Positions 10,644-52,242 of a stretch of DNA of 64,000 bases are shown piece by piece. This DNA is from a virus (Duplodnaviria > Caudoviricetes): positions 94,008 to 158,007 of the IMG/VR virus record IMGVR_UViG_3300029288_007060, one strand, 5' to 3'. Each line of letters opens with the position of its first letter. Position 1 is the first letter of the stretch. The notes beneath the pieces are model-generated. The model worked only from the letters and a program-made list of their open reading frames with translations, searched no databases and was not told the origin of the DNA. Both the position numbers and the translations under genes were made by a program.

Positions 10644-13199
10644 TTATAGAATTCCTACGCTAATATCAACATAAATCCAATCAAGGGGCAAAATGGGCTC
10701 TACTTCAACTGATACATTGATCTGACGTGGATCCACCTCATCTCTCACCACATTTATGTTTCTGTAAGCGGCCAAATAACCCTTGGCTGTTAATGATTGT
10801 AACACTTTGACAACCACTGATGTGATAGAGGCAGTCAATGTGGGGTCTTGTGGCTGTCCAATAAACCCACTCAACGCATCGCGCAAAGACTGAGCGGTGT
10901 TATCTCTAATAAACACAACTGAGGGCTCTTCTTCTAAAGGATCACCGCTTGATGTGGTGGTCTTGCAATGCAATATTTGTCCGCCACCAGTAACCGGTTG
11001 TACGACAGAAATGCCACGATCACCCAGTTCATTCAAAGTGAATGGTCGACGAACCTTGCTTCTTAAAATACTAAACCCTGTCAAAACTTTGTGTGTCAGT
11101 GGTATAGAAACGTTTGCGGTTGCAGCCAACAGTCCGCCAGCCGCAGCAGCCATATAAAATCCATCAATAGTGGTATTTGTTCCGTTAATAACCCTAACTA
11201 TTTCGTCAGGCCAGAAATAAATGGCTCGGAAAGTATCCCCAAAATTAACTCGCACATCGTAATTAGCCAAATCTTCGATATTTCCGGCTAATACTTCCTC
11301 AACATCATCTCCCTGAACACCTTCTAATATTCCGATGTCTTCAACAGCCACCAGCTCTCTTCCAACTAATGCTTCAGTAGTTATCCCACTAATAGCGCCA
11401 ATAAGAGCAACGCGCTCATGTTGGTTAGCAGTGTTACTCATAAGCTCACAATGGGCAATAGCAGCGCGTTGGATAATACTTATGGTATCTGTGGGTAGAG
11501 GCACAACTATTTGACAGCTAACGGCTTCCAAAGCCTCAAAAGCAGTAGCCCAACTGGTATCATAAAAATCTGCGTCATCGGCATCAATAAAGGTTGCGCG
11601 TAAGCCGTCGCCTCTAGCAATAGTTCCACTTGTATATAAGTCACTAGTAAGAAGCAAATAGGCTGATGTGTCAGCAGAATCAACTAACTCCCAACGCAAA
11701 TCTGTATGAGAGGATGCCCAATTGGCACCGGATAATGTCACAACAGTGTCATCACCGAAACCGTCTCCAACGGCAGATATATCGTATGTGCCTGCAACAT
11801 CGCTAGCATCAACTCCGTATAAATCTGTAGGCAAGATTCTTATTTGCTTGCTTGTGTCTACTTCTCCCAAGTCTAGATTGTTGGCACTAAACGATGCGGA
11901 GTCTGCGGTAAAAGTACTGCCGCCTATAGTAACTTCTCCATCAGTACCCTCGTCCTCAACCTGACTCTTTTCAACAACCGTGTAACTGAACGTATACCCG
12001 GCATTGTTTATAAAGTCATTATATATGTCTGCGGTAATAACAGCATTGTAAAAATCAACCTTTGTGGGAGAAATTTGTGTTTCTTCTCCAGTTGTTTTGT
12101 CTATTACAAAAATATGAACATCTGTGTCTGCATCTGGTGTTCCGCTTGCAATAGGGTATTGGAACGCATCAACGTCAGCTGACGTAACTGGGTTTCCAAC
12201 AGGTGGAAATCCTTCAGTACTTGCGGTCAAAGGATCATTGGCAGTAAGTAATACTGTGCTTGTTCGTCTGGCAATAGACGGTTTTGTTTGTACCGCCATC
12301 ACACCAAAAGCACCATTCTCAAAAGCCATAGATGCCCCTAGGGACAAGGTGTTAGATTCTGACGGAAATCCATGCTTCTGATACAGAGCGTTAGAATCAA
12401 CAAAGAATTCTGGATCATTAAGGTCAGCGCTAGCGATATAGTTGGCCTCGAGCGTTTGCCCAACAGTCAACACTTTGCTCGCAACCTTTACAGTAAATCT
12501 ATCGCCCCTGTCGAAAGGAGTAGCGCCCTCTGTTATTGCGATTTGTAGAATTCCATTATCTCTAGTGATACCATCACTAATAAATACTATTGGAGAGCCG
12601 TATGCATCGAGGATTTGTCCAGAAACAGACCCTATTGCAGAAAACGTAGTTTCTTCAGAGATTGGGTCACCGTAAGCGTCTCTAATTACGCTTGTTGCTT
12701 TTATAGTCCAAGTCTCGGTTGGTGCGTCTATATCTAAAAGACTCACTGTAGATATCGACCCGTTGCCCACATTAGATGTTCCGGGAGGAGCATATAAGCC
12801 GCCCTGGTCAACCAAATGTGCTCTCTGAAGTTCAATGCGGCCTGTTGCAGGCTCCAATCTATAATCGTATTGGCTGTCAAAAGCACTGGTAGTAATTGCT
12901 TCCTCGACTCCGGTGAGAGGGATGCCGTCTAACGTTAAAGCTGTTCGTTTTGCAACCAAGGGGAATTTAGACAGAATAAAATGTCTGCCGTCAGGTGCAT
13001 CTGAGCCACTAAAATCGGGATTTACTCCGTCAAGCCCACCGCCTTCGGCGTCTAAAACTACAGTCTCTTCTGCTTGCCCTAGACCCATAATAGCCAAAAC
13101 TCTAAGGCCACCAGGAATACTGATGGACCTTCGAATAGATCTAACCCGACTGTAAACGCCAGGTTGAACGTAGTTTGGAACTCCTGCTATATTCGGCAT
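10644..13199 (-). CDS. Tail sheath protein (851 aa, with inserted domains)
   Basis: N-terminal YVQPGVYSR; C-terminal sheath domain with HCELMS...ERVALIG and EVDPRQINVSVEVEPILPLDWIYVDI. Confidence 0.9.
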   Translation of the reverse strand: MPNIAGVPNYVQPGVYSRVRSIRRSISIPGGLRVLAIMGLGQAEETVVLDAEGGGLDGVNPDFSGSDAPDGRHFILSKFPLVAKRTALTLDGIPLTGVEEAITTSAFDSQYDYRLEPATGRIELQRAHLVDQGGLYAPPGTSNVGNGSISTVSLLDIDAPTETWTIKATSVIRDAYGDPISEETTFSAIGSVSGQILDAYGSPIVFISDGITRDNGILQIAITEGATPFDRGDRFTVKVASKVLTVGQTLEANYIASADLNDPEFFVDSNALYQKHGFPSESNTLSLGASMAFENGAFGVMAVQTKPSIARRTSTVLLTANDPLTASTEGFPPVGNPVTSADVDAFQYPIASGTPDADTDVHIFVIDKTTGEETQISPTKVDFYNAVITADIYNDFINNAGYTFSYTVVEKSQVEDEGTDGEVTIGGSTFTADSASFSANNLDLGEVDTSKQIRILPTDLYGVDASDVAGTYDISAVGDGFGDDTVVTLSGANWASSHTDLRWELVDSADTSAYLLLTSDLYTSGTIARGDGLRATFIDADDADFYDTSWATAFEALEAVSCQIVVPLPTDTISIIQRAAIAHCELMSNTANQHERVALIGAISGITTEALVGRELVAVEDIGILEGVQGDDVEEVLAGNIEDLANYDVRVNFGDTFRAIYFWPDEIVRVINGTNTTIDGFYMAAAAGGLLAATANVSIPLTHKVLTGFSILRSKVRRPFTLNELGDRGISVVQPVTGGGQILHCKTTTSSGDPLEEEPSVVFIRDNTAQSLRDALSGFIGQPQDPTLTASITSVVVKVLQSLTAKGYLAAYRNINVVRDEVDPRQINVSVEVEPILPLDWIYVDISVGIL

Positions 13200-13323
13200 T
13201 GTTTATTCTCCTATTAAATAATCTCGTTCTTAAAAAGTCTTTATTTTTCAATATATTACATTATATAACGTATATAATAAAATGAATATTAAAACACACA
13301 CATGTGTCCTATCTATAAAATAA

Positions 13324-13338
13324 AATATTGATAGATTT
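13324..13338 (-). promoter_or_regulatory. Putative late promoter upstream of the sheath
   Basis: AAATCTATCAATATT, one of 9 copies of the same motif, all in the coding orientation and directly upstream of genes. Confidence 0.7.
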
Positions 13339-13348
13339 TATCTCCCAA

Positions 13349-14125
13349 TTATATTAAATCTTCGTGCGTTAATTGCATGTTAACTGCCAACGCATCGGAT
13401 GCCTCTCCATCTAATGTTTTGAATGTCAAACAGAGCCCAATTCTCTCACACACATCACTTATAGGAACGTGAATTCTCCATTCTGTTCTTATCTCTAAAT
13501 TGACAGACGTCATGTATAGATAATCGTTAGCGTACGGAACCTCTGTCTCGCCCGAAGTAGCCAACGTTTTCACAAAAACACCAGCATTCTGTAAATCTTG
13601 TCGTCTGGAACCCATTAATACAATTTGAACGATATCAGCAATTTCTTCTCTATCAATTTCTGATTCGGCAATAACTTTAACTTCTATGGTTTGATCAAAA
13701 GCCCCGACCCTAGTAAAATAAGCCGGAGTGTATATTTGCGTTTGATTGCCATACGCGTCGGTTAAAATCTCTTTTCTGTTTATGGTTCCAAGATAATCCT
13801 GATTAAATGATATCGGAGAATATCTCGACCCAGTGTTTCTTACTATTATAGACGGATTGAATTTGACATCATAACGATACGAACTGCCTATAAAAATTCT
13901 AGTTGTCTCTTCATCATCCAGGCCAGCTGAAGGGTCGGTGCCCAACAAAGAAGGCGTTTTAGGGAAGCCAAAAACGTCTTGTACGTATTTGAACTGCCTG
14001 TCTATTGAAAAAACATCCCTAAGAGTATCTATAATGACATTTTTGGTATATACTATTCCGGCAGACTCTATTATGTTCTCGAGGTTAAAGATGTCGCTTA
14101 TGGCATTATAAGTTGTAAAACCCAT
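13349..14125 (-). CDS. Tail terminator / tail completion protein
   Basis: Precedes the sheath; PSIIVR...IEVKVIAESEIDREEIADIV...LYMTSVNLEIRTEW pattern. Confidence 0.6.
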   Translation of the reverse strand: MGFTTYNAISDIFNLENIIESAGIVYTKNVIIDTLRDVFSIDRQFKYVQDVFGFPKTPSLLGTDPSAGLDDEETTRIFIGSSYRYDVKFNPSIIVRNTGSRYSPISFNQDYLGTINRKEILTDAYGNQTQIYTPAYFTRVGAFDQTIEVKVIAESEIDREEIADIVQIVLMGSRRQDLQNAGVFVKTLATSGETEVPYANDYLYMTSVNLEIRTEWRIHVPISDVCERIGLCLTFKTLDGEASDALAVNMQLTHEDLI

Positions 14126-14700: not shown

Positions 14701-14710
14701 GATAAACCTC

Positions 14711-17700
14711 TTAATAAGTAAACACCACTGTCGCTCCATAAACTGTGGCGCTGTAATTTATTACTGAATTAGCACGTATCTTTAAAAAGTAATTATATTT
14801 AGAGTAATCTATTATTTCTCCGCCTGCTGTTGTGACCGTAACCAATCCAACGCTTCCAGAGTTTCCAAAAATTGCTCCGGCACCAGACATATCTAACATG
14901 TCACTAATAGCTGTAGTACCCATAGTTGTTAAAACATCTTGTTTATATAATTGTGCGGTAAATGCTGATGCCCCAGCACCAACATCAATGTATCCTTGTA
15001 CCTTAGCATAATTTAGTTTTGCTCCATTCGGTATATTATCAATAGGAAAATATAAAGTTCTTACATAAGTACCAACAGAGCTATTTAAATTTTCATCCCA
15101 CTGGCCAGCAGTTGAAGTAAGTTTCCATTGTGGCAGCCCATCTTCATCAAAGCTTGTCTGGGCCGCGGAAGCTGGAACGCTTAATGTGTCCTGGAACCCT
15201 TTGTTTATTCCAAGTATGTTAACATCATAGTCTCCAGAAACAGAGTAGGTAAAAGACCCACCAAAAAAATTAGAGGTAACAATCGATTCTGTTACGCCAT
15301 CTAATGAAATACATTCAGTAACAAAATTTATAGAATTGTAAATTCTATTTGATACAACAATGTGGTCGCTACCATACAAACTAATAGCCTTCGATATTTC
15401 ACTTCCCGAAATAGTATTTCCGGAAATTTTAACTCTTCCACTGCCAGAGCTAACATTTGTGATTCCTATACACCCAGAACTAACCATTCCGGTTATAATA
15501 TTATTGCTTATATCCAAATCACTAGCATAGGCATAAATTGCCTGTGTTGAAAAAGCATAGTCTGTTACAGATAGGTCACCGGGCTGACTTATGTTGTTAC
15601 CAGATATTTTAGAATTAGAGCCATTCCATCTTATTCCTGTCACTCCAGGCCCAACTAAAATATTATCGGTTATACTAGAATACAACACTGCTCCATATAT
15701 GTAAGCAGAAGAGGCCATGATGCCAAGATTAATCAAACTATTATTTGATATTTTAACCCTGCTAGTTGTATCCGTCTGAGCATCAATTAAAATACCTCTA
15801 TACAAATCACAGTCTTTGATAGTGTTGTAGGAAATATCAGCAAACTTTAGCCCATCCAAAATACGAATGGCTATATCATTATTGTTTCCAGTACCCATGT
15901 TCATAATAGTATTTCTGTGTATATGAACATGATAGGTGTTTGCAACATAGATGCCGTATATTTCATTATCGTCTAATTTAATTCCGTCGATTAAATTATC
16001 ATTTATAAATAGCTGGTCTACAATTCCTGTCACCGAATTATCTAACAAATCTATTCTGATACCATTTGTTATAGTATTTTGAGCAGCATGCACAATATTA
16101 TTATCACATATTCTTAATGTGCTTATATTATTTTCTATTTCTACCATTACTGCTCGCAAATCTGTCGCAGATACTATACTGGGAATATCAATATTGTTTT
16201 TTAAAATAGAGATATTTTTAACGGTCCTGTCTGCACTACTCACTTTTATTGCATATGAAAGTCCTCCAGTGCCTGACACATTCGTTATATTATTATCCTC
16301 AATCAATAGGTTTTCTACCCCGGCATTAGACACAATTCCAGAATACACTGTGTCAATATAGTTGTTCACTATCTTAATATTTTCTGTCGCCAAAGTAGAG
16401 ATTTCAATAGCAATATCATTTTCATATGTGGTTACGCTTTCTCCGAATTTAAAATAGCATTTCTCAATTGTAACATTAGACCCCGTTATATAAACCAAAG
16501 AGGAGTCTAGGCTGGCGATATCGCTATTTATCTCGATATTCTCTAATCTATTATTTCCCTCCAAAGTTATGAAATGGCTTCCTTGTATTGATGCATTGCT
16601 TATTTTTTGTTTTCCTGCACCATAAGGACCCGCCCCAAGTATAGAGACTCCGTTTGGAACAACGATTGGTTTCGCTGGTATAATGTCATTGATTATTTTG
16701 ATAATTATTTTTTCGTCATTAGGGTATTTCTCAGCATATGCCAACGCACCCTCTAGTGTTTTAAAATTACCAGACAAATTGTTTGCACTACCATCAACGA
16801 CTAATTCGATTTTATTATCAATATTGTTTATGAACTTTCTGATGTCTGTTATATCTGTGGTTGTATTATTTATTCCCCCATCGGTAAGATAAACGTAATA
16901 TAACGGAAGTACTCTTCCATATATTGAGTCATACCCATCTACTAATAATGTTCCCAAATCATCGTCAAATGTTTGCAACGTTCCGAGCCCATTAACACCT
17001 ATAATTTTATTGCCAGTTATCAGTTGGCCAGAGTCGGATGATGGGATTACCACCCTTTGTGTTTCTATCGCTATTCTGACACCATCAATATAGGCGACCC
17101 CGCCAGTAAGTGGAACAGCCACCATATTGGTCATAGAGTCAGAGAATTGTTCAGACGTGATGATATCAAACCCTCTTATAACGCCATCGGCGCGGAGTTC
17201 GGATATAGGACGCTGAGTCATGGCCGAAACCACATCATCTCTAACATCCAGCATTCCCAAATTTCCAAATAATCTATTATCAAATATGTTGGTGGCCTTT
17301 AGCTCTCCATCAAAATGTACAGTTCCTAATAATAGAGCTTCGTCTTCCGGTATGTATGGAAACACACTTAGGTCCTCAATGCCACCCAATATAGTTCCCG
17401 GCAAAATATTTAATAATAAATAATCTATGTTATTAGGATGATAAAGTTTAAAAGACCCAACAAAGGTATTACTAATCGATGATACGGATCCTGTCAGAGA
17501 ACTATTTATAAGATAAAAATTGACAGTATCTGCAACGCCAGTATCCACAAAGACATTGAACTCTCCGTTCGGAAAACCAGAAGACAAACCAATTATTTCG
17601 ATAGAGGAGCCTAAAGTAGAACCGTATATCAAACGCTGATGCAATAATGCATTTTGATTAGAATCAACATATATTTCAACTAGCCCTTTGTCAGTTTCGC

Positions 17701-19594
17701 TATTGTTCAACAAATTCAAAGACAAATCCGCAGAAGTGAATCTAACATAAAATCTCGTCGGATTTGTGACAACAGGGATTTCTTCCGAAGCAAATACGGA
17801 CACAGTGCTTGTTGTAGATGTCATAACAGTATAGCTACCATTAACGGTGCCTGTTGGGTGTCCCATCACATGCATTACAGAACCGGATACTATATTGTAA
17901 TCTAATGGATTTATAATTTGGCCGGAGGCAGAATATAATGTAAATGTACTACTATCTGATGTGATATCAATATATGCTTCTAGTGTTATAGTTAATCCAC
18001 CTAAAGACTTTCCGCTCACAGAATAATTTAATCCTTCATTTCCATATATAACTTTGCCAACAACGTCTGCGCCATAGGCGTCTAAACCTAGCGCATAATT
18101 TCCATTGTATCCATCTTCAATTGTGATGGTATATCCATCGCCAACCCAATTATGGGCTATGGCCAACTCATCTCCTATTCTGTAGGCCGTAATGGGAAAA
18201 TGAAGCTGCCCAACAGGATCAGACACATAAGCGTTTATTCTGTCTGCAACAGATTTTGCGTTTACAGGAGAGGCAGCAGATAAGGATAATCTGTCTAAAC
18301 TCAAATCGGGTATTGTGACACTTCTGTAGTTACCGGCGCCTATTCCGACCGTAACACATACCTCATACCCATCAAGAGCTAAAATAGGGGCATTAAAACC
18401 AATACTTTTAACTCTGGCTGTCTGTGGATTTAAAACCGATACGCTATCCACTATTGTTTCATTATTTCTTATTGCGCAGGCCAGAGGACAAGACTCATTA
18501 GATATAAAAATTGGCTTATATATTTCCGCAATTATATTGTCCCCAGCAACAACTGTTTCCGAAAATGTATGAAATATTGCTAATTGATTTGATAATAATA
18601 TTGGAAAATTGCCAAGACTCTCAGAATCACTCAAGGGGCCAATTGCCCGAATTTGATATGTGCCTGCATCATCAGCATTACCCTGGATATATATTATATC
18701 TCCGACTTCTATATTATAATTTGAAAAATTACTCAATGCTGTAAAAGTAACTATGCCGGTGTCTTCGGCATAAGTGATTGCAGAAGAAGACAAGACTTTT
18801 TGTTTCTCATTAAATAAATCTCCAGACGCAATCGTTTTAAAAACACCATTAGAGTGAAAGTCAATGGTATGGGTAATTCCTAAGGCCCCAGCACTAGAAT
18901 CTATATCTTCTAGTGCAGACTGAACGTCTGTCGACGTTTTGTCTATAATTGATGTGAAAGAGGATGTATCAACTTCGATATTTGATGCCTCATGTCTAAA
19001 GGGAAAATCTAAACCAGACTCAATATGCGGGGTTATTGTATTATCTCCGCCAAACAGATAAGATGCTATTTCATTGATAGCGTCTCCAATAGTGGCGGTA
19101 CTGGGCGACAAACCACCTATCACACCAATATTATTGACGTCTATTTTAATCTGATACCCGTCATGAAAGTTTGAGACGCCAAGGGTATGTTCATTTAGGG
19201 TGTTTGATAGAGACGTATAACCAGTTTGCAATCCTAAAATATCCGTCTTAGAGGAGTCTATCCAAGTCTTTAATGTCACCGTGTCATAATCTAAACTTAA
19301 TTTAGATTCTTTAATTCCTGCATTAGCCCCGACATGTCTGTCTAAAACTGGCAATCCTACCAAACCAATGCCATCCAACGCCGCACTTTTAATTGCTCCA
19401 TTTTCATCTATAGATACATTAATACGATCCGCAAGACTATCTTCGTTTCCTTGTAAATTAATGCCAAGCGTATCCTCAATTGCCAAAACAGCATCACGAA
19501 TACTGTTAATACTGTCTGCCGTTATCTCTGTAACATTATCGTCGGCCAATGGCAACTCGAGGTCGCTGTCTATTTGATTTGGAAATAAAGTCAT
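14711..19594 (-). CDS. Tail spike/fibre with C-terminal right-handed beta-helix (candidate depolymerase)
   Basis: Start moved to ATG 19594 (GGAG RBS); many I-x-x-N-x-I beta-helix rungs; N-terminal region paralogous to 19614-22640. Confidence 0.7.
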   Translation of the reverse strand: MTLFPNQIDSDLELPLADDNVTEITADSINSIRDAVLAIEDTLGINLQGNEDSLADRINVSIDENGAIKSAALDGIGLVGLPVLDRHVGANAGIKESKLSLDYDTVTLKTWIDSSKTDILGLQTGYTSLSNTLNEHTLGVSNFHDGYQIKIDVNNIGVIGGLSPSTATIGDAINEIASYLFGGDNTITPHIESGLDFPFRHEASNIEVDTSSFTSIIDKTSTDVQSALEDIDSSAGALGITHTIDFHSNGVFKTIASGDLFNEKQKVLSSSAITYAEDTGIVTFTALSNFSNYNIEVGDIIYIQGNADDAGTYQIRAIGPLSDSESLGNFPILLSNQLAIFHTFSETVVAGDNIIAEIYKPIFISNESCPLACAIRNNETIVDSVSVLNPQTARVKSIGFNAPILALDGYEVCVTVGIGAGNYRSVTIPDLSLDRLSLSAASPVNAKSVADRINAYVSDPVGQLHFPITAYRIGDELAIAHNWVGDGYTITIEDGYNGNYALGLDAYGADVVGKVIYGNEGLNYSVSGKSLGGLTITLEAYIDITSDSSTFTLYSASGQIINPLDYNIVSGSVMHVMGHPTGTVNGSYTVMTSTTSTVSVFASEEIPVVTNPTRFYVRFTSADLSLNLLNNSETDKGLVEIYVDSNQNALLHQRLIYGSTLGSSIEIIGLSSGFPNGEFNVFVDTGVADTVNFYLINSSLTGSVSSISNTFVGSFKLYHPNNIDYLLLNILPGTILGGIEDLSVFPYIPEDEALLLGTVHFDGELKATNIFDNRLFGNLGMLDVRDDVVSAMTQRPISELRADGVIRGFDIITSEQFSDSMTNMVAVPLTGGVAYIDGVRIAIETQRVVIPSSDSGQLITGNKIIGVNGLGTLQTFDDDLGTLLVDGYDSIYGRVLPLYYVYLTDGGINNTTTDITDIRKFINNIDNKIELVVDGSANNLSGNFKTLEGALAYAEKYPNDEKIIIKIINDIIPAKPIVVPNGVSILGAGPYGAGKQKISNASIQGSHFITLEGNNRLENIEINSDIASLDSSLVYITGSNVTIEKCYFKFGESVTTYENDIAIEISTLATENIKIVNNYIDTVYSGIVSNAGVENLLIEDNNITNVSGTGGLSYAIKVSSADRTVKNISILKNNIDIPSIVSATDLRAVMVEIENNISTLRICDNNIVHAAQNTITNGIRIDLLDNSVTGIVDQLFINDNLIDGIKLDDNEIYGIYVANTYHVHIHRNTIMNMGTGNNNDIAIRILDGLKFADISYNTIKDCDLYRGILIDAQTDTTSRVKISNNSLINLGIMASSAYIYGAVLYSSITDNILVGPGVTGIRWNGSNSKISGNNISQPGDLSVTDYAFSTQAIYAYASDLDISNNIITGMVSSGCIGITNVSSGSGRVKISGNTISGSEISKAISLYGSDHIVVSNRIYNSINFVTECISLDGVTESIVTSNFFGGSFTYSVSGDYDVNILGINKGFQDTLSVPASAAQTSFDEDGLPQWKLTSTAGQWDENLNSSVGTYVRTLYFPIDNIPNGAKLNYAKVQGYIDVGAGASAFTAQLYKQDVLTTMGTTAISDMLDMSGAGAIFGNSGSVGLVTVTTAGGEIIDYSKYNYFLKIRANSVINYSATVYGATVVFTY

Positions 19595-19613
19595 TTCTGT
19601 CTCCGTAAAAGTT

Positions 19614-22600
19614 TTATAGTACGTCGCCCAAGAGAGCAAATTGTGATGTATCTGAAGAAATCTGATTTATATGTCCAGCTATTGAATAGCTGCTTGTAAC
19701 AACCCTCACATTATTGAAAGCAATAACTGGCTCAGGATCATCTCCTGTGCCACCATCAATAAGAGTAGAGTTAACAATCTTTATTCTAGGAACCAACTTA
19801 AACATTATGTCGTTGTCAATATCCAATAGGGATAATGGTATCGACACTACATATTTTTCAACTACTGAGTCAGACGGCAAAACCCCTAATGTTAATGTTT
19901 TAACTATACAATACTCATCATATGTACTCACGGAATCTATTCCAATCTTGGCCGCTATTCCAACCTCTATATATGCAGTTCCGCTTGCGCCAAAGGGGCC
20001 ACCTAGCCCACCAGTATATTCTGTCTCAACAAAAATATTTGCGTAAGTTAATCCTGGCGCAAAGAATATCGGGTATGCAATTAGAGAAGCTGAGTTGAAT
20101 TCAAATACTCTTGTGGTAGAATTATTTCCTGCCATAAAACCAACGACACCGTAAGTTACAGCATCAAAGCCATTGTGAGCGCCGGGGTCTAGTTCGGCAA
20201 TATATCCATCGGCACTAGCAATAGTTATTCCCCACATACTTCCGGACACTGTGTTTTGCACTTGTTCTATTTTATTATTCAAGTCCGTTTCTATATCTAA
20301 TAATTGCTTATCTATTTTGGAAACTATCAACCTCTTATCTACAAGATATCCATCTACCTCTACTCCGTCTGTTTCGAACTGCAATATAGGGACAACATTT
20401 ATATTATCTCCATAATTATTTCCGCTTGTTAAATCATCGAAAGTATAACCTGCATCGAACTCATTTTTTACAATAAAATGTCCTGCACTATCTACCATAA
20501 GAATATTGTTAGCGAATGTAAAGTCATCTATCACCACATCAGTGGTGGGAACAGACAATATATTTCCAGAAACTAAAACTCTTCCGCCTCGTATTTTTAT
20601 AGTACTGGTCGTATTTGAAATCACATCCAAGCCTTCCAAGACGCCGTTGTTTCTTAAAGAATCAAGGGCGTTAGTTAGAGGCACAGTATTTAAAATATCT
20701 TGCGACAAATTTTCTATTGAATTGCCAATTTTGCGTTTGTCTGTTACATATTTTAAGGTATCAAAACCCAGATTGCCACAAAAATGCACTGATGATAAAT
20801 ACAATAGATCACTGGATTCTGCGCATGCATATACAGTCATATCCTCTCGACTATGTGATGGAGAGCCGTATGTCTCAAAAATAGCAGAACTAATATTGTC
20901 CGGCGCGAACACTTTAAGATTTCCAGAAAACCCGGCCGGAATTTGAACGGGCAACCCAGCCACATTGTCTTCATAGAGAATAATATAATCATCACTAGTG
21001 ACTTCCCATTCTATATTGTTTATCGGGAACTCTTTATTAATTGTTCGCAAAACCACATTAGATATAGAATCATATTGTACGCGTGTTTGTTTTGATATAA
21101 TTCCGTATCCATCGGCATCTCTTTCTAGAAAAATATCATATATGTTTCCTTTTGTATTATTTATAAAACTCAATGAGTCTGCAGCTATCTCCAAATCAAA
21201 ATCTCCCAGAGCGATATTTGTGTTTAACAAAAATGTAGAGACAGAGGGAAATGAAGCAATATAGTATGTTCCATTAGCTGACGATGCACTTGAGTGATTT
21301 GTAATATTACAAAGAATTCTTCCGTTATTGGTTATGTCTAACCCAAGAGACGATAAATCTCCCAACGCCGGGTCAATCTTATTAGGATTAACAGAGTCCG
21401 CATGGGTATATTGTATTTTTAATAATGACTTAAGCCCAACAATACGATTTCCATTAATATATGCCGCATGCTTCTCTTCTGGCCAATAAAATGTGGTTGT
21501 TATCACATCTTCGAAACCTAATGCTGTTGCGGCCGAAAGCGAAACTGTATCCAGTATGGCTATAGTAAAATTATACCCAGGTATGTTATGGGCGATAGTT
21601 AGTCTTCCGCCCGTATTATATGCGCTAATTGGATAATGGTTTGTGGCAGACTGAGCAACTGTATTTATCTTTGCTACAATTATATCTATATCTTGGGTCG
21701 GAATAACAGAACTAATATCTATATCCAAATATGTTCTGTCCACGCCACCAGCCTGAATTCTTAATGTGGTAGCGACCCCTATCTTTAACGCCCTAAAGTC
21801 TATGCCCTTGCTAGTAACCCTTGCAACATTTGGGCGCATGACCTGAAGAATATTCGTAGCAACAGTTTTGTCTGTTTGAAAGATGGTGCTGGCCAAAGTT
21901 GTCACCACCAAATCACCCTGATCGCCACTTTCTGCAAAAATATTATTTTGAATAGCATTTGTGTGATGATTTGTTTGATGAGCCTCTATTTTTCCAGTGT
22001 AAACTAAATCTAATTCCTCTAAAGCATCCTGGACGTTAGTGGATGATATGTTTTCAAAAACATTATCTACTGATACCGTACTTGCTGTATGCGACACGAT
22101 ATTCAAATCAGTTTCATGGTCAGTTAAAGCATTGTTGATATTATGCAAAACTTCTTCTACTGTGCTTACTCCCCTGATTGTTTCGGTTGTGTCTATATCA
22201 TAACCGTCGTGTTTATCTGATGTGCCAGCATAATGATTGATCATTCTAACAGAAAATGTGGATAAGCTAGCATTTGTTGCATCTATATTTGTTTGTTTGT
22301 CGTCTATTAAAGCCTTAAGAGTGGTGGTAGAATAATCTAGGTCGATTTTGCTTTCAGATATATTTGCATTAGTGGCTATCTGCGAATTTGATATTGGCAA
22401 TGTTACCAACCCAAGCGTCGAAAGCGCCGAAGACTTCAAATGACCGTCTTCATCAATTACTAAATTAATTCTTGTGACTAAGTCTTGCATATTTCCAGCT
22501 GGACTTGTTCCTATGGCCTTTTCAATTGCCATAACAGCGTCTCGAACCGAGTTTATTGTATCGGCAGTGAGTTCAGTAACTCCATTTTCTGATAATGGAA

Positions 22601-22640
22601 GTTCTAAATTAGAATCTAATGCCAGTGGATATGAAGTCAT
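19614..22640 (-). CDS. Tail fibre/spike-associated structural protein (paralogue of the neighbouring spike)
   Basis: Shares the N-terminal anchor and blocks such as ARV.S.G, HYPISAY..G..L.IAHN and LR.NGV..G.D with 14711-19594. Confidence 0.6.
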   Translation of the reverse strand: MTSYPLALDSNLELPLSENGVTELTADTINSVRDAVMAIEKAIGTSPAGNMQDLVTRINLVIDEDGHLKSSALSTLGLVTLPISNSQIATNANISESKIDLDYSTTTLKALIDDKQTNIDATNASLSTFSVRMINHYAGTSDKHDGYDIDTTETIRGVSTVEEVLHNINNALTDHETDLNIVSHTASTVSVDNVFENISSTNVQDALEELDLVYTGKIEAHQTNHHTNAIQNNIFAESGDQGDLVVTTLASTIFQTDKTVATNILQVMRPNVARVTSKGIDFRALKIGVATTLRIQAGGVDRTYLDIDISSVIPTQDIDIIVAKINTVAQSATNHYPISAYNTGGRLTIAHNIPGYNFTIAILDTVSLSAATALGFEDVITTTFYWPEEKHAAYINGNRIVGLKSLLKIQYTHADSVNPNKIDPALGDLSSLGLDITNNGRILCNITNHSSASSANGTYYIASFPSVSTFLLNTNIALGDFDLEIAADSLSFINNTKGNIYDIFLERDADGYGIISKQTRVQYDSISNVVLRTINKEFPINNIEWEVTSDDYIILYEDNVAGLPVQIPAGFSGNLKVFAPDNISSAIFETYGSPSHSREDMTVYACAESSDLLYLSSVHFCGNLGFDTLKYVTDKRKIGNSIENLSQDILNTVPLTNALDSLRNNGVLEGLDVISNTTSTIKIRGGRVLVSGNILSVPTTDVVIDDFTFANNILMVDSAGHFIVKNEFDAGYTFDDLTSGNNYGDNINVVPILQFETDGVEVDGYLVDKRLIVSKIDKQLLDIETDLNNKIEQVQNTVSGSMWGITIASADGYIAELDPGAHNGFDAVTYGVVGFMAGNNSTTRVFEFNSASLIAYPIFFAPGLTYANIFVETEYTGGLGGPFGASGTAYIEVGIAAKIGIDSVSTYDEYCIVKTLTLGVLPSDSVVEKYVVSIPLSLLDIDNDIMFKLVPRIKIVNSTLIDGGTGDDPEPVIAFNNVRVVTSSYSIAGHINQISSDTSQFALLGDVL

Positions 22641-31502: not shown

Positions 31503-31711
31503 ATAGTAAAATAATGCTAATATATCAACAGCATCTTGATGATTTATACTATTACCAATAGTTCTAATGCGTTTTGTATCGTCGCTAGGACACTACCATC
31601 CGTATAACTCTGATGGTAGTGTCTGATTTTTATTCACTTATTTGAGATCCCCCACCAAATTTACATAATAACTACCGTCATAGTAAAATAATGATAATAT
31701 ATCAACAGCAT
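31503..31711. repeat. 32-bp direct repeat (31503-31534 and 31680-31711, 1 mismatch) flanking a 12-bp hairpin (31589-31623)
   Basis: atagtaaaataatg[c/a]taatatatcaacagcat; gacactaccatc-N11-gatggtagtgtc. Confidence 0.85.
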
Positions 31712-34700: not shown

Positions 34701-37055
34701 AGAGAATAGTTGAACAGTGTCAAGTATATCCCAAATAGTTGTAGATATAGTTAATACGCCACTAGCATTGTAATAAACATAGTGTCTGCCTTCGGCTTCT
34801 GCTATACTAACGCTAGCTGTAGTTTTGCTTATTTTTGTTCCGTCAATATAAATTATGTGATTTCCTGTAACAGTAGCTACAACATTTGGATTTACATAAG
34901 CTGCTGATGGTGTAGGAACAGTTAAAACACCAGTAGGTAATTCGGTGTCTGTAAAAATAGCGCCATAAGCATCACAGGATTCTCTTATATCAGAAAACGC
35001 TTGTGTTAAGTCTTCATTTATTATATTACCGCCAACTGAAATTGAGCCAGCAAATGTATTAGATTGTGTAAAAACATTAGATTCGTCTAAAGACGCATAA
35101 CCATCCAATGTTTGTGATAAATTAGCATTTATTATAGTGCCGCCGACCATTAAATCATTTTGTATTATATCGGATGTAAAATTATATCCGTCATAAGCCA
35201 ATGATACTATATCTCTTCTAGAAGCAATGGTAGTAATAATGGGGGTTATTCCCCTTATCCATTGTACATTGGCAGGCCAAATGACATTTCTAAATGGTGG
35301 CGCATCAGATTGTTCTATTTCAAGAGTATATAGTGAGCCCGCAAGAGAGCTTGCAAACGTTAATGTAACGTCACCAGGAGCATCGCTAAGATTAAGAATC
35401 TGATGATTGCAATTATTCCACTCTATAACTTGGGCGGCAATAACAGGCGTATTTGTTTTTATCTGAGATTGGCCAAATTGTTGTCCAGCAATGGTGTTTT
35501 TGCCTGAAGTGATATTTCCATAATTTCTAAGATTGATAGGCTCCAAAGCTCTGCCTATAACGCCATCGTATTGGGCTGTTGCTTCAGCCATATGCCCTAT
35601 TGCAAGGGTGCTCGCAAAACCATTGCTAGTTGCGTGGCCTCCAATAGAAATACTTTCATAAGAGTTTGCGATAGCATCATGTCCCAAGGCTGTACCACCT
35701 ATATCAGCCGATGCCAATTGACCAATAGATGTTCCTCCACCTGAAGCGCCGCCAACTGCACTAGTGCCCACAACAGTATTTGCCGAGCCTGTTGATGAAG
35801 CGCTATGACCAATAACAACACAGTCTGCTGCTGCATTTGTGACAGATATATTGGGCCCAACTGCCACAGTATAATTACAATTAACAGCAACAGATGAAGA
35901 CGTACCAAATGCAATGCTTGATGTTGCACTAGCAGCAGAACTTCCTCCAAAAGCAATCCCTCCTAGGGCAGCAGAAGAAGCACTTCCAAAAGACATGCTT
36001 GAAGAATCGCTTGTACTTGCGTCTTCTCCAAAGGATATGCAACCAGCACCATTTGCTACAGCATTGGCACCTAAAGCAACAGAAGGGCTCCCAAGGGCAC
36101 GAGCATTTTGGCCTATAGCCACTGCGTTTGTTTGTGTCGCTTGTGAAATTTGCCCTATAGAAACCGCCACAATTCCACTAGCAGTTGCATTTTTCCCAAT
36201 AGCAACACTTCCGCTGGCTGAAGCTGTTGACTGATGCCCTACAGCAACAGTGTATTCGTTTGACGCGGCGGCTTGATACCCATAAGATTGTGCGTATTGA
36301 TTTGAGGCTGTGGCCCCGTATCCAATTGCCGATGCCCAAGTCGATGATGCGTTGGCTGTAATACCAATCGCTAAACCATAAGCTCCTGTCGCAGAAGATG
36401 CTTGACCAATGGCTGTACCACCAAAACTACCACCTGATGCGGTTGCTCCTTGTCCAATTGCAGTAGATTTAGTTCCAGATGCGGTAGATGCATTTCCAAT
36501 AGACACAGAATTGGTTCCAGAGGCAACAGAAGATAACCCGAAATGCTCACTGGTTGTTCCTGCCCCAGGACTTGTTATTGTTCCTACCACATGTAGTTCT
36601 GCACTAGGAGATGCTGTATGTATGCCCAAACGATTATTCGCTCTATCCCAAAACAAATCATTATCCCCAGCTATTTTATTAGTTCCAGTAAAGAAAGTTA
36701 CATAACCATCTCCAGTGGAACCGGTTGATGTAGTGTAGCCATCTAGTACAGAAGAAATATTATTTATTTGATTTTGATATCCATCAGCAGCATTCATCAG
36801 AGGAATAAGACTAGAGTTTATTTGTGTTCCAATATTATCTATTTGAGTTTGATAGCCGTCACAGGATTGACGAATAGTTTGAAAAGTTTCTGTTAAGTCT
36901 TCGTTTATTATATTGCCAGATATTTTTATGCTGCCGTTTATATCTAATGATTCTGTCGGAGAAGACGTACCAATGCCAACATATCCATCAGAACGATAGA
37001 TATCGCCATTAAGATTTGTTAACCAACGAGATATTGATACTTCTGGTAGTTTCAT
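31638..37055 (-). CDS. Long adhesin-like fibre with two YadA-head-type repeat arrays (1805 aa)
   Basis: Dozens of 14-15-aa A-x-A-I-G-x-x-A-x-A repeats in two blocks; duplicated GDGYVTFFTGTNKIAGDNDLFWDRANNRLGIHT segment and duplicated tip domain. Confidence 0.8.
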   Translation of the reverse strand: MKLPEVSISRWLTNLNGDIYRSDGYVGIGTSSPTESLDINGSIKISGNIINEDLTETFQTIRQSCDGYQTQIDNIGTQINSSLIPLMNAADGYQNQINNISSVLDGYTTSTGSTGDGYVTFFTGTNKIAGDNDLFWDRANNRLGIHTASPSAELHVVGTITSPGAGTTSEHFGLSSVASGTNSVSIGNASTASGTKSTAIGQGATASGGSFGGTAIGQASSATGAYGLAIGITANASSTWASAIGYGATASNQYAQSYGYQAAASNEYTVAVGHQSTASASGSVAIGKNATASGIVAVSIGQISQATQTNAVAIGQNARALGSPSVALGANAVANGAGCISFGEDASTSDSSSMSFGSASSAALGGIAFGGSSAASATSSIAFGTSSSVAVNCNYTVAVGPNISVTNAAADCVVIGHSASSTGSANTVVGTSAVGGASGGGTSIGQLASADIGGTALGHDAIANSYESISIGGHATSNGFASTLAIGHMAEATAQYDGVIGRALEPINLRNYGNITSGKNTIAGQQFGQSQIKTNTPVIAAQVIEWNNCNHQILNLSDAPGDVTLTFASSLAGSLYTLEIEQSDAPPFRNVIWPANVQWIRGITPIITTIASRRDIVSLAYDGYNFTSDIIQNDLMVGGTIINANLSQTLDGYASLDESNVFTQSNTFAGSISVGGNIINEDLTQAFSDIRESCDAYGAIFTDTELPTGVLTVPTPSAAYVNPNVVATVTGNHIIYIDGTKISKTTASVSIAEAEGRHYVYYNASGVLTISTTIWDILDTVQLFSFYWDATAHSVVGDISYEFHSITMSKGTHDYLHSTRGTAYESGLPITYTANDSTVTTIGIGNGIIHDEDIEFSITHADSPSSDFQQILYPVAQIPVYYLTGASSLPRKFVATIHPYVTAGTGRIAYNQFTGGAWQQTEVGNVNYVAYWIIATSNIREPIISIQGQRTDISLANARANNDFAQVNQAILQFNEFKLLYRVIFQATNTNDKAQIVDVTDSRLSISGGNAVASALSHSSLSGLLNDDHPQYALINGTRDFTGDVTINGNIINTALKTALDGYTASTGSTGDGYVTFFTGTNKIAGDNDLFWDRANNRLGIHTTSPSAELHVVGTITSPGTGATSEHFGLLSSASTTDSTAVGYNAQATTGTNATAFGSSSTATAAGTTALGKSANASAASATAVGLSSVAGGIQGSAFGNAASAGGQASTALGKSANASNSDSVAIGSSAASAGQGGVAIGYSATASALVAVAIGQNSQATQTNAVALGQNARALISTGVALGANATAQSNTGAIAIGDASISSGSRSVAIGTSSSATGTAALAFGSGATANVNTSLAIGDTAIVSATESVVIGNNATCNQINSVAIGRSASVTVSSNAVAIGYQAATSQIATVAIGSTAIASGAGGTAIGYGTDATGTASVAIGRDAQATQNDCTAIGYNVQATTNINNTAIGSGASATVIGGTAVGKGATAGNATGATAFGAGASANCITTGGTAIGYNAGVSGVGGIAIGNSTTATGNSAISIGISALSQSTYCVAIGRSANAAVQYGTAVGPSTNIQAYNSVAIGNSATILHSACSYSVAIGNGATCKTLADNSVAIGADSKCEATTSIAIGSNAVTSGASSIAIGYLATTSAYTNALAIGNGATATGNNTGSIGSYTNPVSLTVYGDLSATSSLSVGADGYFTANVIVSGQIAPDLASDGYLVPTGDANINWNAGNAQIVSLQDVSSPCVLTLTNPINGGSYNIMFIQGSSAKTITFPNTFRWSGGTIGSLTATAYAVDILSLFYYDGSYYVNLVGDLK

Positions 37056-39563: not shown

Positions 39564-39610
39564 AGACACTCCTTTGAATGTTAAACAATTTGTCTTTCTC
39601 TATACAAATA

Positions 39611-39660: not shown

Positions 39661-40548
39661 TTATATTATCTGCCTTTGTCGTAGGTGGCGAAGCCTTAAG
39701 AAAGCTGGTGCAATACCCGAAACACGCCAGGAACCAAGACCGCGCGGTGAGGGTTTTAGGTTGCACTTTATAACCTTCACTTTGTCTTTATAATCTGCCA
39801 ACTGAGTAGTGTATTGGCTATTTAAAATCTCTGATATAGTAGGCGGCTGATATGTTATCCCATTATCTGTAATAACAAATTCGCGCCCCCGCTCAATCAG
39901 AGTCTGCGCAGCTAACGCTAACAATACAGCTCCCTGCACTATTACGTCGGCAAATATAGTATAAATTTGAGGGTCAGAAAAAAGAAAATTCGAGAAATGT
40001 GGAATTTGATTGAATTCAGATAAGCTATTAACCAAGAACGCTATTAATTCTGCATCAGTAAATACATTGCATATCTCTGTGGTATAGCCGCCCAAGCCAT
40101 CTGGTATCTTTCTTACGCCATTATTTTTTAAACGAGGCTTAATTAATTTTAACAAAACATTAACCCCATAAGTTTCTGCTTGCGTAAACACAAATGGAAT
40201 ATCCTCGCCAGGATAATAAACGGGTTCAATATCTTCTTCTAATTCACTAGATGCACTAACCAAAAATTGAAAACCGCTAGATATAGTTTCGTTTCCGATT
40301 TTGGCCGTCCACAAATCAGTATAGTATCCATCCGGCCCGGTTAACGGTATAGAGTAAGTAAAACTATAAATACCAGGGTCTTCGGCCAGCCCAACCCCAA
40401 CTCTAGTGGCGGCCTGTTGAAGTGTACCATTAGAATCATAAATTGCAACAGTAGGGATATCGTCTGTGTTTACGTGAGTGCCCTCTGCGTCAGAGAATTG
40501 CACAAAAATCTCTATGTCTCTTCCCTGTATTCCGAATCTATTGGACAC
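39661..40548 (-). CDS. Head-tail adaptor protein with N-terminal Ig-like domain
   Basis: FTDAELIAFLVNSLSEFN...IVQGAVLLAL...ITDNGITY helical adaptor pattern; GGAGG RBS before a GTG start. Confidence 0.6.
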   Translation of the reverse strand: MSNRFGIQGRDIEIFVQFSDAEGTHVNTDDIPTVAIYDSNGTLQQAATRVGVGLAEDPGIYSFTYSIPLTGPDGYYTDLWTAKIGNETISSGFQFLVSASSELEEDIEPVYYPGEDIPFVFTQAETYGVNVLLKLIKPRLKNNGVRKIPDGLGGYTTEICNVFTDAELIAFLVNSLSEFNQIPHFSNFLFSDPQIYTIFADVIVQGAVLLALAAQTLIERGREFVITDNGITYQPPTISEILNSQYTTQLADYKDKVKVIKCNLKPSPRGLGSWRVSGIAPAFLRLRHLRQRQII

Positions 40549-42341: not shown

Positions 42342-42614
42342 TTATAAAGATAGCTTTAATATTAGATAGTTTAATTGTATTTCTTGCACGGAACATTCCT
42401 TTCCGATATCATCAAAGAAGAAATTTCCTTGGTTTCTGCTTAGCGATGACAAAATGAATGTTAGGTCTAATATATCTTCACTATTAAAGTTGAGTGGGTC
42501 AGATATAAATACGCAATGAAAGCGGCCATATTGGCCGCGATAGAAATGCAAATGTTCAAAACCAAATGCTGTTTTTAATTGTATGCACTGCTCTTTGGTA
42601 GTTAAGTCAGACAT
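42342..42614 (-). CDS. Hypothetical protein (start uncertain)
   Basis: ORF fills the gap downstream of the HNH gene; the ATG at 42614 overlaps the HNH stop region. Confidence 0.4.
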   Translation of the reverse strand: MSDLTTKEQCIQLKTAFGFEHLHFYRGQYGRFHCVFISDPLNFNSEDILDLTFILSSLSRNQGNFFFDDIGKECSVQEIQLNYLILKLSL

Positions 42615-45351: not shown

Positions 45352-45484
45352 ATTTTTTTCCTCCGTGGAAATTTCTATTTTGGTATCTGGTCGTATATTT
45401 TCCCGTCCCAGACCTGATAGATGATTTTTAAATTTGTTGGCTATTGCCAACCGACTCACAACAAATTTAAAACATGTCTTTACT

Positions 45485-45524: not shown

Positions 45525-45536
45525 ATTAATTAACTA

Positions 45537-46250
45537 TTAGCTAATGGTTCTGTAACCAGAGCCTGCCCACTGAATCACAACACGGTCAAATGTCGAAGCA
45601 CTTGGCGATGAACTGAAGAAGCGACCAGGAGTCTGAACCAAGCCACCGCTGTTCGTCAACTCAACGAATTGAGCAACGATTGGGCCTGATACGTAACGGC
45701 ATAATAGACCGGTAGCATTAACGCCTAGTTGGGCACCCGGTACCGGCGTATCCCAAGCTGCGCTATTCGTAGTAGGATACACGATAGCTGTGGTCTGAAC
45801 ATTAGCGTGGTCAACTGCGTCCAAACTAATCGCATAAAGACCAGGGCTATTCCACAAGGTAACTTTGCCTGAGCCAGTCAAAGAGCTGGGCCCGAGGTTG
45901 GTACCAGTTGTGGTCGTGCCGGTGTTACCACCAACAACTGTGCCAAACAACACGCCATAGCCAGCAGAGCCTTCATCTGCCAGATACAATGCATTGTAAT
46001 AAGGCGTGCCAATATAGCTTGTAGAAGCTATACGAGCCAAGGGACGATATTGGGTAGTCGTACCAGTATCGATACTGGGTGCGACGTAACCGTCTTGAGC
46101 GTCAAACGCGGAAGTTTCAGTAGAGCTGTTTGCTACTGTAGTGTAATGCAAGGTCATTACTTCTCCGCCTAAAATACTCGAAGCATCCGTATTTAGGATG
46201 TCGAATTGGCCTAGTGGTTGAACACCAGATTGCATAAGATATAGAGCCAT
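45537..46250 (-). CDS. Capsid decoration/cement protein
   Basis: Immediately upstream of MCP with GGAGG RBS; SGKVTLW...GLY and L-x-x-NA-x-GLL shared with 51550-52242. Confidence 0.6.
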   Translation of the reverse strand: MALYLMQSGVQPLGQFDILNTDASSILGGEVMTLHYTTVANSSTETSAFDAQDGYVAPSIDTGTTTQYRPLARIASTSYIGTPYYNALYLADEGSAGYGVLFGTVVGGNTGTTTTGTNLGPSSLTGSGKVTLWNSPGLYAISLDAVDHANVQTTAIVYPTTNSAAWDTPVPGAQLGVNATGLLCRYVSGPIVAQFVELTNSGGLVQTPGRFFSSSPSASTFDRVVIQWAGSGYRTIS

Positions 46251-46342: not shown

Positions 46343-46357
46343 AATATTGATAGATTT
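46343..46357 (-). promoter_or_regulatory. Putative late promoter for the decoration-MCP unit
   Basis: AAATCTATCAATATT. Confidence 0.7.
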
Positions 46358-48613: not shown

Positions 48614-48615
48614 TT

Positions 48616-50262: not shown

Positions 50263-50270
50263 AGTTCACC

Positions 50271-51497: not shown

Positions 51498-51549
51498 CTG
51501 TTATCTCCTATTTTTATTATATCATCTTGAAATATTTTCTATAAAACTA

Positions 51550-52242
51550 TTACATCCACATAAATTCAATCGAATTGTTAATTCCAGTTGGAGGGCCCGT
51601 AAGCACCGCCACTCCTGGGTGCGATGGGGTGATTCTTTCTGTTGTCAACAAGCCTTCAGCATTACAAAACAACGTGGCATTCACAACATATTGCTGAGTT
51701 GGATCAAATTGGTCTGTTTCATAAATCCCTCTTTGAAACCAAACAGTGATGCGGCCACTAGAAACTGTGGTATTGTCTCCAGGTATATTGGCTATCCTAT
51801 ATGTATAGTTCACAATTGTTCTGATAGAATCTGGTATTGAGTCACCGTCAGAGTCGTAATTGAGCGTGCTTCCGGCCGGAACAGAAATTACACCATTCAC
51901 ATCATAAAGTATAAGGCCTTCAATATCGGCCGTAAAACTACTACGAACTATATTGGAAAATCTTAATCTTTTTTCTGTATCTATAGCGGACACATAATGT
52001 CCATACCCATCACCCACGCCGACCAGCGGAATAACAACAACTTCATCAATAACAGATGCTGTGAAAGCAGACGTATTAATGTCGTCAATTATTCCTATTG
52101 GCGCTGTACCATCACTAACCCCGCAAACTATTTCGTTTCCAAGAACTTTCATTTGGCCTATCTGACCCGGCTGAAATGTGCTAGTTGGATCGACGGGAAA
52201 TGAAACCGGTAGACTGGATCCGACCTGGATTAACTTTAACAA
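51550..52242 (-). CDS. Second capsid decoration-like protein
   Basis: TTG start at 52242 after GGAGG; SGRITVWFQRGIYETDQF...LFCNAEGLL, paralogous to 45537-46250. Confidence 0.55.
   Translation of the reverse strand: MLKLIQVGSSLPVSFPVDPTSTFQPGQIGQMKVLGNEIVCGVSDGTAPIGIIDDINTSAFTASVIDEVVVIPLVGVGDGYGHYVSAIDTEKRLRFSNIVRSSFTADIEGLILYDVNGVISVPAGSTLNYDSDGDSIPDSIRTIVNYTYRIANIPGDNTTVSSGRITVWFQRGIYETDQFDPTQQYVVNATLFCNAEGLLTTERITPSHPGVAVLTGPPTGINNSIEFMWM

Follow-up and report, generated by a model that had tools for sequence, protein, structure and literature searches.

The tripeptide Asp-Gly-Tyr (DGY) is strongly overrepresented in the outer virion proteins encoded by IMGVR_UViG_3300029288_007060 (here G000), a 158-kb tailed-virus record with a CheckV-estimated completeness of 39%. 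The stretch analyzed here (the window) comprises the final 64 kb of this record, and the excess of DGY in its outer virion proteins, about 13- to 17-fold over chance, is confirmed as genuine. The motif is strict in its residues, independent of sequence context, restricted to certain lineages of related phages, and conserved within protein families, the folds of which do not need it; an island of genes for soluble sugar-handling enzymes lies next to the tail genes. These sequence patterns suggest that DGY is probably a real surface tag that is read in trans. As to the specific mechanism, tyrosine O-glycosylation by a soluble phage glycosyltransferase of the GT2 family is the leading candidate, if a tentative one.

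Enrichment of DGY in giant fiber proteins

The open reading frames (ORFs) of the window contain 32 DGY tripeptides, 28 in four giant fibers (11, 8, 5, and 4) and single copies in four other proteins (Table 1). These are exactly the numbers of an earlier note on this DNA, which had also reported about eight copies of the related DAYG; there are eight, two in the tail sheath, four in the fibers, and one each in the 258- and 569-amino-acid (aa) proteins. For the four fibers, where the note had guessed that 1 or 2 copies would occur by chance, the amino acid composition predicts 1.65 (0.31 in the 1805-aa fiber and 0.66 in the glycine-rich one), and 3.6 are expected across all 44 ORFs. No other tripeptide comes close to the enrichment of DGY (P about 1e-24).

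The note had named a test by shuffling, composition, and duplication as one that the enrichment might fail; it persisted. Shuffling of the fibers in 10-residue blocks, which keeps the local composition, gives 2.0 ± 1.35 DGY and at most 9 over 2000 shuffles. Once internal duplicates are collapsed, 27 independent sites remain, including 23 in the fibers (two site pairs of the 1805-aa fiber are such duplicates), so that duplication explains few sites, as had been supposed. An artifact of composition or duplication is rejected, since the excess survives all these corrections. A motif at the DNA level is rejected as well: DGY is encoded in the window by 11 different codon combinations, and of 35 coding-strand matches to GAYGGNTAY, 32 are in frame, compared with a single match on the other strand. 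Because the codons vary and the matches are in frame, the signal acts at the protein level.

The non-fiber ORFs combined contain 4 DGY versus 1.9 expected (P = 0.12). The absence of DGY from the major capsid protein, tape measure, hub, and similar proteins, to which the note had drawn attention, is thus real but uninformative. Excesses of the tripeptides DLW, INW, and WTQ are due to the Asp-box-like repeats of the glycine-rich fiber (23645-28444; 17.8% Gly), which contains two long runs of propeller repeats of this type, S-x-D-G-x-x-W followed by K-D-L-W, and ends in a Peptidase_S74 self-cleaving chaperone domain.

Phyletic distribution

A profile scan of viral contigs identifies 36 loci in which the ratio of observed to expected DGY is bimodal, from 6 to 22 in one group and from 0 to 4 in the other. 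The DGY-rich loci range in G+C content from 29 to 52% and include phages that share only the N-terminal fiber domain. Two sublineages of relatives are DGY-rich (6- to 22-fold), whereas a sister lineage with orthologous proteins is near the baseline. The relatives fetched in full comprise four rich genomes, including the complete 448-kb genome G016, and two poor ones (G024 and G028).

The five DGY-rich genomes that were fully or largely fetched contain from 42 to 159 DGY versus 8.6 to 18 expected. Some of the large virion-type proteins carry this excess; the remainder of each proteome is near expectation. Neighboring fiber genes on the contigs of relatives show the same excess, and one relative encodes a 3634-aa fiber with 57 DGY. 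In the poor lineage, no tripeptide is an outlier, and no alternative sequon was found at the tripeptide level. Searches of the phage collection with the head region (DNA) and with the 1008-aa fiber (protein) returned no cultured match.

Residue requirements of the motif

In proteins of ≥700 aa from the rich genomes, the observed/expected ratio is 13.1 for DGY and 2.6 for DAY. Variants at the first and middle positions are not enriched (NGY, 0.7; EGY, 0.5; SGY, 0.7; DSY, 0.4), and neither are those at the third (DGF, 0.9; DGW, 0.6; DGH, 0.9; DGI, 1.1; DGV, 1.3). Both the Asp carboxylate and the phenol OH of Tyr thus matter. A plain Asx-Gly turn is disfavored because N-G, which is at least as good in such turns, shows no enrichment, and aromatic packing is disfavored because Phe would serve in it, yet DGF is not enriched. 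For a type I' beta-turn, in which N-G is as good as D-G and any strand-forming residue may come next, NGY, DGF, DGI, and DGV would all be expected in excess, in contrast to their ratios of 0.7, 0.9, 1.1, and 1.3.

The same ratios bear on the possibility that DGY is an intrinsic capping element, in which Asp-Gly makes a left-handed-glycine turn or a helix C-cap and Tyr starts the next strand, bonding via its OH; this lineage would then have favored the motif as a building block while duplicating its fiber repertoire. N-G and D-G-F should serve equally well in that role, yet they are not enriched, and a universal local motif should not be lineage-specific, whereas the poor lineage has no excess. 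On the other hand, a hydrophobic residue often precedes the motif (LDG, FDG, IDG, and VDG are enriched 2- to 2.7-fold), and many sites lie right after helices ("..IQTILKDL-DGY" every 27 to 34 residues; helices 402-408 and 880-885) or in hairpin loops. The Gly tends to be kept when Asp and Tyr are lost, and DGY in Bacillus phage G lies within conserved repeated modules. Given that sister-lineage scaffolds fold with unrelated residues at the DGY positions and that the flanks are almost without periodicity across 238 contexts, this explanation appears quite unlikely.

Structural context

Across the pooled tail-gene loci, 312 DGY are observed where 22 are expected, and their 238 distinct contexts have nearly random flanks. 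Sites are found at the helix ends of a 27- to 34-residue repeat, at two positions of an immunoglobulin-like (Ig-like) repeat of ~115 aa, at the starts of Big_5-type domains, and in dense low-complexity arrays. With hairpins added to these, the view of the note that the motif occurs in unrelated structural contexts is upheld. One such array, in the G003 protein encoded at 1490-12394 (residues ~1560 to 1595), packs eight DGY into 36 residues at spacings of 3 to 6, and the giant baseplate proteins of the DGY-poor G024 and G028 carry DGY/DAY arrays at the orthologous spot.

In two AlphaFold2 models, of the 1008-aa and 1627-aa proteins (predicted local distance difference test [pLDDT] scores of 80.7 and 71.8, respectively), 8 of 10 sites fall in coil or turn immediately past a helix or strand. 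The model of the 1627-aa protein has its conserved sites in loops or at the ends of helices; the near-invariant DGY886 coincides with a five-residue loop of pLDDT <50 (residues 886 to 890), and a second such loop (residues 495 to 510) contains or borders DGY494 and DAYG505. Structural neighbors of the 1008-aa model in the PDB are phage tail proteins alone, matched with low template-modeling scores that are uninformative on the motif.

Named motifs that combine these residues do not fit. The tyrosine corner (L-x-P-G-x-Y) has Gly at Y-2, often Pro at Y-3, and a hydrophobic residue at Y-5; here, Gly is at Y-1 and Asp at Y-2, with no preference for Pro or Leu in the 238 contexts. In the EF-hand or DxDxDG loop, positions 1, 3, 5, and 12 are acidic, position 6 is Gly, and position 8 is hydrophobic, whereas enrichment of Asp in the DGY flanks is ≤1.4-fold and its spacing is not fixed. 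A few DGY sites adjoin dockerin-like GDVNGDG calcium loops. Outside the window, the 917-aa protein (p917) encoded at G000 76905-79658 has at residues ~596 to 610 a loop of this kind, GDV[ND]xDG, that is kept in all lineages, and the DAY that precedes it is found only in the closest sublineage.

Two alternatives raised by the note, a Ca-binding turn and a purely trimer-stabilizing motif, fit poorly; the motif is also found in the sheath, Ig-like repeats, and low-complexity arrays. The fiber needle gp37 of phage T4 carries H-x-H motifs that bind iron on the trimer axis. Like these, DGY is a short i/i+2 motif with chemically specific side chains that is repeated along a fiber. Unlike them, it requires a small middle residue and extends to the sheath, Ig-like repeats, and accessory head proteins.

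Another proposal is that DGY acts in cis as a binding patch, with the Asp carboxylate and the Tyr ring on an exposed turn binding a sugar, polymer, or cation of the host surface and no modifying enzyme involved; hundreds of low-affinity copies per virion would then provide avidity for the host envelope or matrix. An Asp and an aromatic residue form the usual minimal sugar-binding pair in lectins. A ligand set by the host would suit the strict Asp and Tyr, the context independence, the outward-facing restriction, and the lineage specificity; dense arrays with 3- to 6-residue spacing, in the G003 fiber and in poor-lineage baseplate proteins, suggest multivalency, and some sites precede the dockerin-like GDVNGDG loops. 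Set against this, a contiguous tripeptide seldom forms a binding site alone, no common pocket is apparent across helix caps, hairpins, and Ig-like repeats, and there is neither EF-hand/DxDxDG spacing nor enrichment of Asp or Glu at the flanks that it requires. We consider the binding patch unlikely.

Conservation, loss, and turnover of sites

Within families of 40 to 58% identity, the best sites are retained in 40 to 46 of 42 to 47 sequences, next to variable flanks and indels. The 1627-aa protein has 41 homologs, of which ≥90% conserve DGY145, DGY408, DGY494, DGY886, and DAYG505. For the 1008-aa protein, ~50 full-length metagenomic homologs (40 to 55% identity) average 3.7 DGY each versus 0.21 expected; sites 145 and 510 are present in 44 to 46 of 47, and sites 763 and 811 in 26 or 27 of 47.

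Between lineages, the same positions hold unrelated residues, showing that the fold does not need the motif. Thus, R-H-DGY-x-I is replaced by R-H-KLS, TLF, KGQ, or SGI, the N-terminal I-DGY by D-SN, DSD, or DST, DGYG by GPNN or DSNG, and the D-AY-G-x-P of the sheath by D-SN-G, NSLN, or DANG. The residues found in place of Tyr are mostly small and polar. When a site is lost, Asp and Tyr tend to disappear together and Gly is retained (QGN, KGT, PGN, SGF, EGF). About 4 of 22 alignable sites are common to the two rich sublineages, both of which keep high totals. By analogy, this turnover with the number kept resembles that of glycan-shield sites.

The smaller proteins show the same pattern. Both DAYG of the sheath (DAYG174 and DAYG198) sit in D-x-x-G-x-P hairpin turns of the insertion domain and are kept in close relatives; elsewhere, these turns read DSNG, NSLN, DANG, DSAG, or DDSG. 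The site in the 258-aa tail protein is D[GA]YGN in 5/5 DGY-rich genomes and TDYG or NEYG in poor-lineage orthologs. In the 569-aa protein, DGY331 is kept in 5/5 rich genomes and deleted in the poor lineage, and DAYG230 is limited to the closest sublineage. DGY53 of the 237-aa protein is likewise kept in 5/5 rich genomes and absent from poor-lineage orthologs. The 295-aa protein has a conserved P-x-G-x-W-x-D-x-W scaffold, in which the site is DGY in the close sublineage, YGV in the low-G+C sublineage, and KGL in the poor lineage. In the 235-aa protein, the respective versions are DGYG, GPNN or GPGG, and DSNG.

Candidate writer enzymes

Directly downstream of the baseplate genes, G000 encodes 8 proteins that match GT2 and 3 that match GT1 families, as well as a PseB-like dehydratase and a protein that matches PF01973 (Maf-like) at the family cutoff. 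No polytopic membrane protein is encoded in the 47-kb stretch of this island, which therefore fits direct transfer of sugar to a soluble acceptor. The last baseplate gene is immediately followed by a gene for a 404-aa GT4-like protein (G000 75614-76828, outside the window) and then by GT2 genes. This GT4-like gene occupies the same place in every lineage examined, both rich and poor, with 34 to 55% identity, and is a candidate for a conserved tail-associated transferase.

The earlier note had suggested checking for the co-occurrence of glycosyltransferases and the motif, and the outcome is mixed. Islands are found in rich and poor relatives alike; one GT2 gene tracks the motif over about three lineages. 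This gene (G000 74878-75612) has an ortholog beside the GT4-like gene in 7/7 evaluable rich records and in 0/6 poor ones. Restriction to the rich lineages is likewise seen for a second GT2 family (G000 71678-74567) and for an RmlA-like nucleotidyltransferase. As the three lineages are about equidistant, these correlations represent just one or two evolutionary events. Among named families, the two-domain GT2 protein best matches, far below the cutoff, the mycofactocin glycosyltransferase MftF, which glycosylates a tyrosine-derived phenol; we treat this match as a curiosity only.

Several candidates have been rejected. The mere presence of GT2 or GT1 families does not discriminate, as the DGY-poor lineage has them too. 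A Maf-like PF01973 protein cannot be the general reader, as the complete rich genome G016 has no PF01973 match. The rich-specific genes of the window, two for LAGLIDADG endonucleases and one for a cold-shock protein, are rejected as writers of the tag. In a 289-kb relative (L003), a 251-aa protein with a weak match to PF01973 is encoded between two fiber genes (7494-8249), followed within 2 kb by a gene for a trypsin-like protease (9335-9982).

The reader need not be a glycosyltransferase. DGY might signal docking or processing by some other phage protein, such as an assembly chaperone, a small protein that decorates or bundles the fibers, or an enzyme that adds a non-sugar group to Tyr or Asp. 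The tag-like evolution of the sites suits such a signal just as it suits glycosylation, and the shared genes specific to the rich genomes include those for a trigger-factor-like chaperone, a Big_1-containing 628-aa structural protein, and several proteins without assigned function. However, no kinase, sulfotransferase, Fic, or ATP-grasp enzyme is seen among these shared genes, the rich-specific genes of the window are those for homing endonucleases and the cold-shock protein, and a binder would be needed at hundreds of copies per virion, for which no abundant small candidate is evident. A signal of this kind is therefore improbable.

Tyrosine glycosylation as the leading proposed mechanism

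As expected of a sequon, DGY is a short motif that bears a potential acceptor, enriched 13- to 17-fold and conserved at the best sites in ≥90% of homologs. In the glycosylation model, D-[G>A]-Y would tag outward-facing virion proteins (fibers, tailspike, outer sheath domain, and a few head or neck accessory proteins) without being needed for their folding. While the late genes are expressed, a soluble phage glycosyltransferase would read the tag in the cytoplasm and attach an O-linked sugar to the tyrosine hydroxyl; Asp at -2 would be the recognition element, and the small middle residue would permit the turn. The glycan would next be lengthened by further transferases from the island, leaving a sugar coat over the tail and fibers. 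In its fullest form, the proposal is speculative: DGY might be a sequon for tyrosine O-glycosylation, the first to be defined, with the candidate GT2 of G000 74878-75612 as its cytoplasmic writer and the 40-kb island extending the glycan into a tail and fiber coat across a clade of uncultivated jumbo phages. A literature search found no paper describing a DGY motif.

Several observations weigh against this interpretation. DGY-poor relatives have equally prominent glycosyltransferase islands beside their tail genes, and because these relatives have no outlier tripeptide, such an island does not imply a DGY-type tag. The correlation with the GT2 gene rests on about three roughly equidistant lineages, is unrooted, and is confounded by phylogeny; no outgroup shares the proteins of the three lineages compared. 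Alternatively, DNA or a host component could be the substrate of the glycosyltransferases. Two of the 10 modeled sites lie inside predicted strands, and one scaffold position that holds Tyr here has Val or Leu in other lineages, so that some DGY tyrosines may be partly buried. DGY is not avoided by non-virion proteins, and arrays of it are also found in one poor-lineage baseplate protein. No cultured relative has the trait, the excess in phage G being modest (14 versus 2.2 expected) and largely due to two repeated modules. The idea of a surface-modification sequon, as put forward in the note, is supported in part, by the enrichment, strictness, lineage restriction, modeled position in loops or helix caps, and dispensability; the modification itself we infer, along with any reading of the tag, a glycosyltransferase as its reader, and Tyr as the acceptor.

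If tyrosine glycosylation is correct, a transferable three-residue site and a soluble enzyme would become available for site-specific protein glycosylation, and large environmental phages would be seen to sugar-coat their tails at a scale not described before. It would also account for the large glycosyltransferase islands that many jumbo phages have beside their tail genes. Even with another reader, a three-residue word at hundreds of positions flags those virion proteins of uncultivated phages that face outward, and it gives a starting point for finding the factor that reads it.

Comparison with known glycosylation systems

Maf-type enzymes, the family PF01973, glycosylate flagellin with pseudaminic or legionaminic acid. 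Their direct cytoplasmic transfer onto a filament protein has a parallel here in the PF01973 gene at the cutoff and the PseB-like dehydratase. However, their acceptors are Ser and Thr, with no strict sequon, unlike DGY, and PF01973 is missing from the rich genome G016.

Short sequons are known from other bacterial systems. The sequon of PglB is D/E-x-N-x-S/T. In Bacteroidota, O-glycosylation uses the motif D-(S/T)-(A/I/L/V/M/T) (on this system, see PMC8698959 and PMC5420450). Like DGY, both are very short, context-free motifs of surface proteins with an essential Asp one or two residues before the acceptor. In contrast to the island of G000, which has no membrane transferase and for which Tyr is the candidate acceptor, these systems use lipid-linked glycans and membrane oligosaccharyltransferases, which act in the periplasm on Asn, Ser, or Thr.

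O-glycosylation of Tyr is known in bacterial S-layers, namely, in Paenibacillus alvei SpaA and in Thermoanaerobacter (PMC2943079). Shared with the proposed system is the idea of prokaryotic glycans on the Tyr hydroxyl of surface arrays. Unlike what is envisaged for DGY, S-layer glycosylation takes place during secretion, relies on an O-oligosaccharyltransferase, and affects few sites per protein, with no consensus reported.

Mycobacteriophage virions are glycosylated by phage-encoded glycosyltransferases (Freeman et al. 2023, cited in PMC12619734). The enzymes are soluble and encoded close to structural genes, with virion proteins as their presumed acceptors, as proposed here; in G000, the GT4-like gene and the GT2 genes lie near the structural genes in the same way. 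The mycobacteriophage glycans are reported on C-terminal extensions of capsid and tail-tube subunits, and neither a defined tripeptide nor a Tyr linkage is known for them. In our case, the candidates are D-G-Y loops within fibers, sheath, and accessory proteins, numbering in the hundreds, and DGY is lacking from the major capsid protein.

DGY-bearing proteins and gene order

Nearly all genes of the window are on the minus strand. In the order of transcription, the head genes are followed by the four giant fiber genes, the sheath, the tube, and the baseplate genes, and the sugar-handling island lies beyond the window. Coordinates of the motif-bearing proteins are listed in Table 1. Of the gene starts given in the note, that of the 1627-aa protein agrees with the alignment of its homologs, and 28432, that of the glycine-rich fiber, is the first ATG of the respective ORF. 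The ORFs that the note had labeled as neck, decoration, and terminator proteins have no match in PHROGs or Pfam. Of these putative labels, only that of 45537-46250 is backed by gene order: this gene lies directly upstream of the major capsid gene, in the same order as gp26 and gp27 of phage G, where gp26 is the capsid decoration gene.

Table 1. Positions of DGY and DAYG codons in virion proteins of the window, with the major capsid protein
Protein	Coordinates	Strand	DGY codons	DAYG codons	Remarks
1805-aa fiber with YadA-head-like repeats	31638..37055	-	36981-36989, 36852-36860, 36777-36785, 36735-36743, 36702-36710, 35184-35192, 35097-35105, 33867-33875, 33834-33842, 31995-32003, 31935-31943	34962-34973	Pfam YadA_head, E = 2.7e-47; PHROG tail fiber
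Glycine-rich fiber, ~1595 aa	23645..28444	-	28388-28396, 28067-28075, 26939-26947, 26930-26938, 25865-25873, 24716-24724, 24530-24538, 24209-24217	28094-28105, 27800-27811	Pfam Peptidase_S74, E = 6.7e-14; PHROG tail fiber families
1627-aa tailspike-like protein, beta-helix in C-terminal half	14711..19594 (ORF to 19639)	-	19154-19162, 18365-18373, 18131-18139, 18107-18115, 16931-16939	18071-18082	Start at 19594 from homolog alignment
1008-aa fiber/receptor-binding-type protein	19614..22640	-	22200-22208, 21105-21113, 20346-20354, 20202-20210		N-terminal domain paralogous to that of the 1627-aa protein
851-aa tail sheath	10644..13199	-		12669-12680, 12597-12608	PHROG tail sheath
258-aa tail protein	13349..14125	-		13748-13759	Between fibers and sheath
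569-aa virion protein	29344..31053	-	30055-30063	30355-30366	
295-aa head-proximal protein	39661..40548	-	40324-40332		
237-aa protein	45537..46250	-	46086-46094		Decoration-protein position
235-aa head-region protein	51550..52257	-	52003-52011		
Major capsid protein	44335-45459				53% identity to the Bacillus phage G major capsid protein

Other genes of the window and its relatives

Homing-endonuclease genes are found amid the structural genes of the window at 28422-28976, 38448-39569, 52236-53177, and 42602-44131. Three of these enzymes are of the LAGLIDADG type and one has an HNH domain; their homologs are scattered across all DGY-rich genomes. The block of head and neck genes also includes a gene (41275-41529) for an 84-aa protein with a cold-shock domain (PF00313, E = 9e-24), which is kept in every DGY-rich relative examined and is missing from the two DGY-poor genomes. 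The trigger-factor-like chaperone and an EF-Ts homolog, encoded in G016 at 243601-244848 and 136358-137290, respectively, are common to other DGY-rich genomes, and neither was detected in the two DGY-poor genomes.

In phage G, the giant tail proteins gp420 to gp431 (316783-347675) contain a module that ends in DGYWYVRG, present in six copies, and another with LV-DGY-[LI]-VK, present in three. These two repeat modules account for most of the 14 DGY of that phage.

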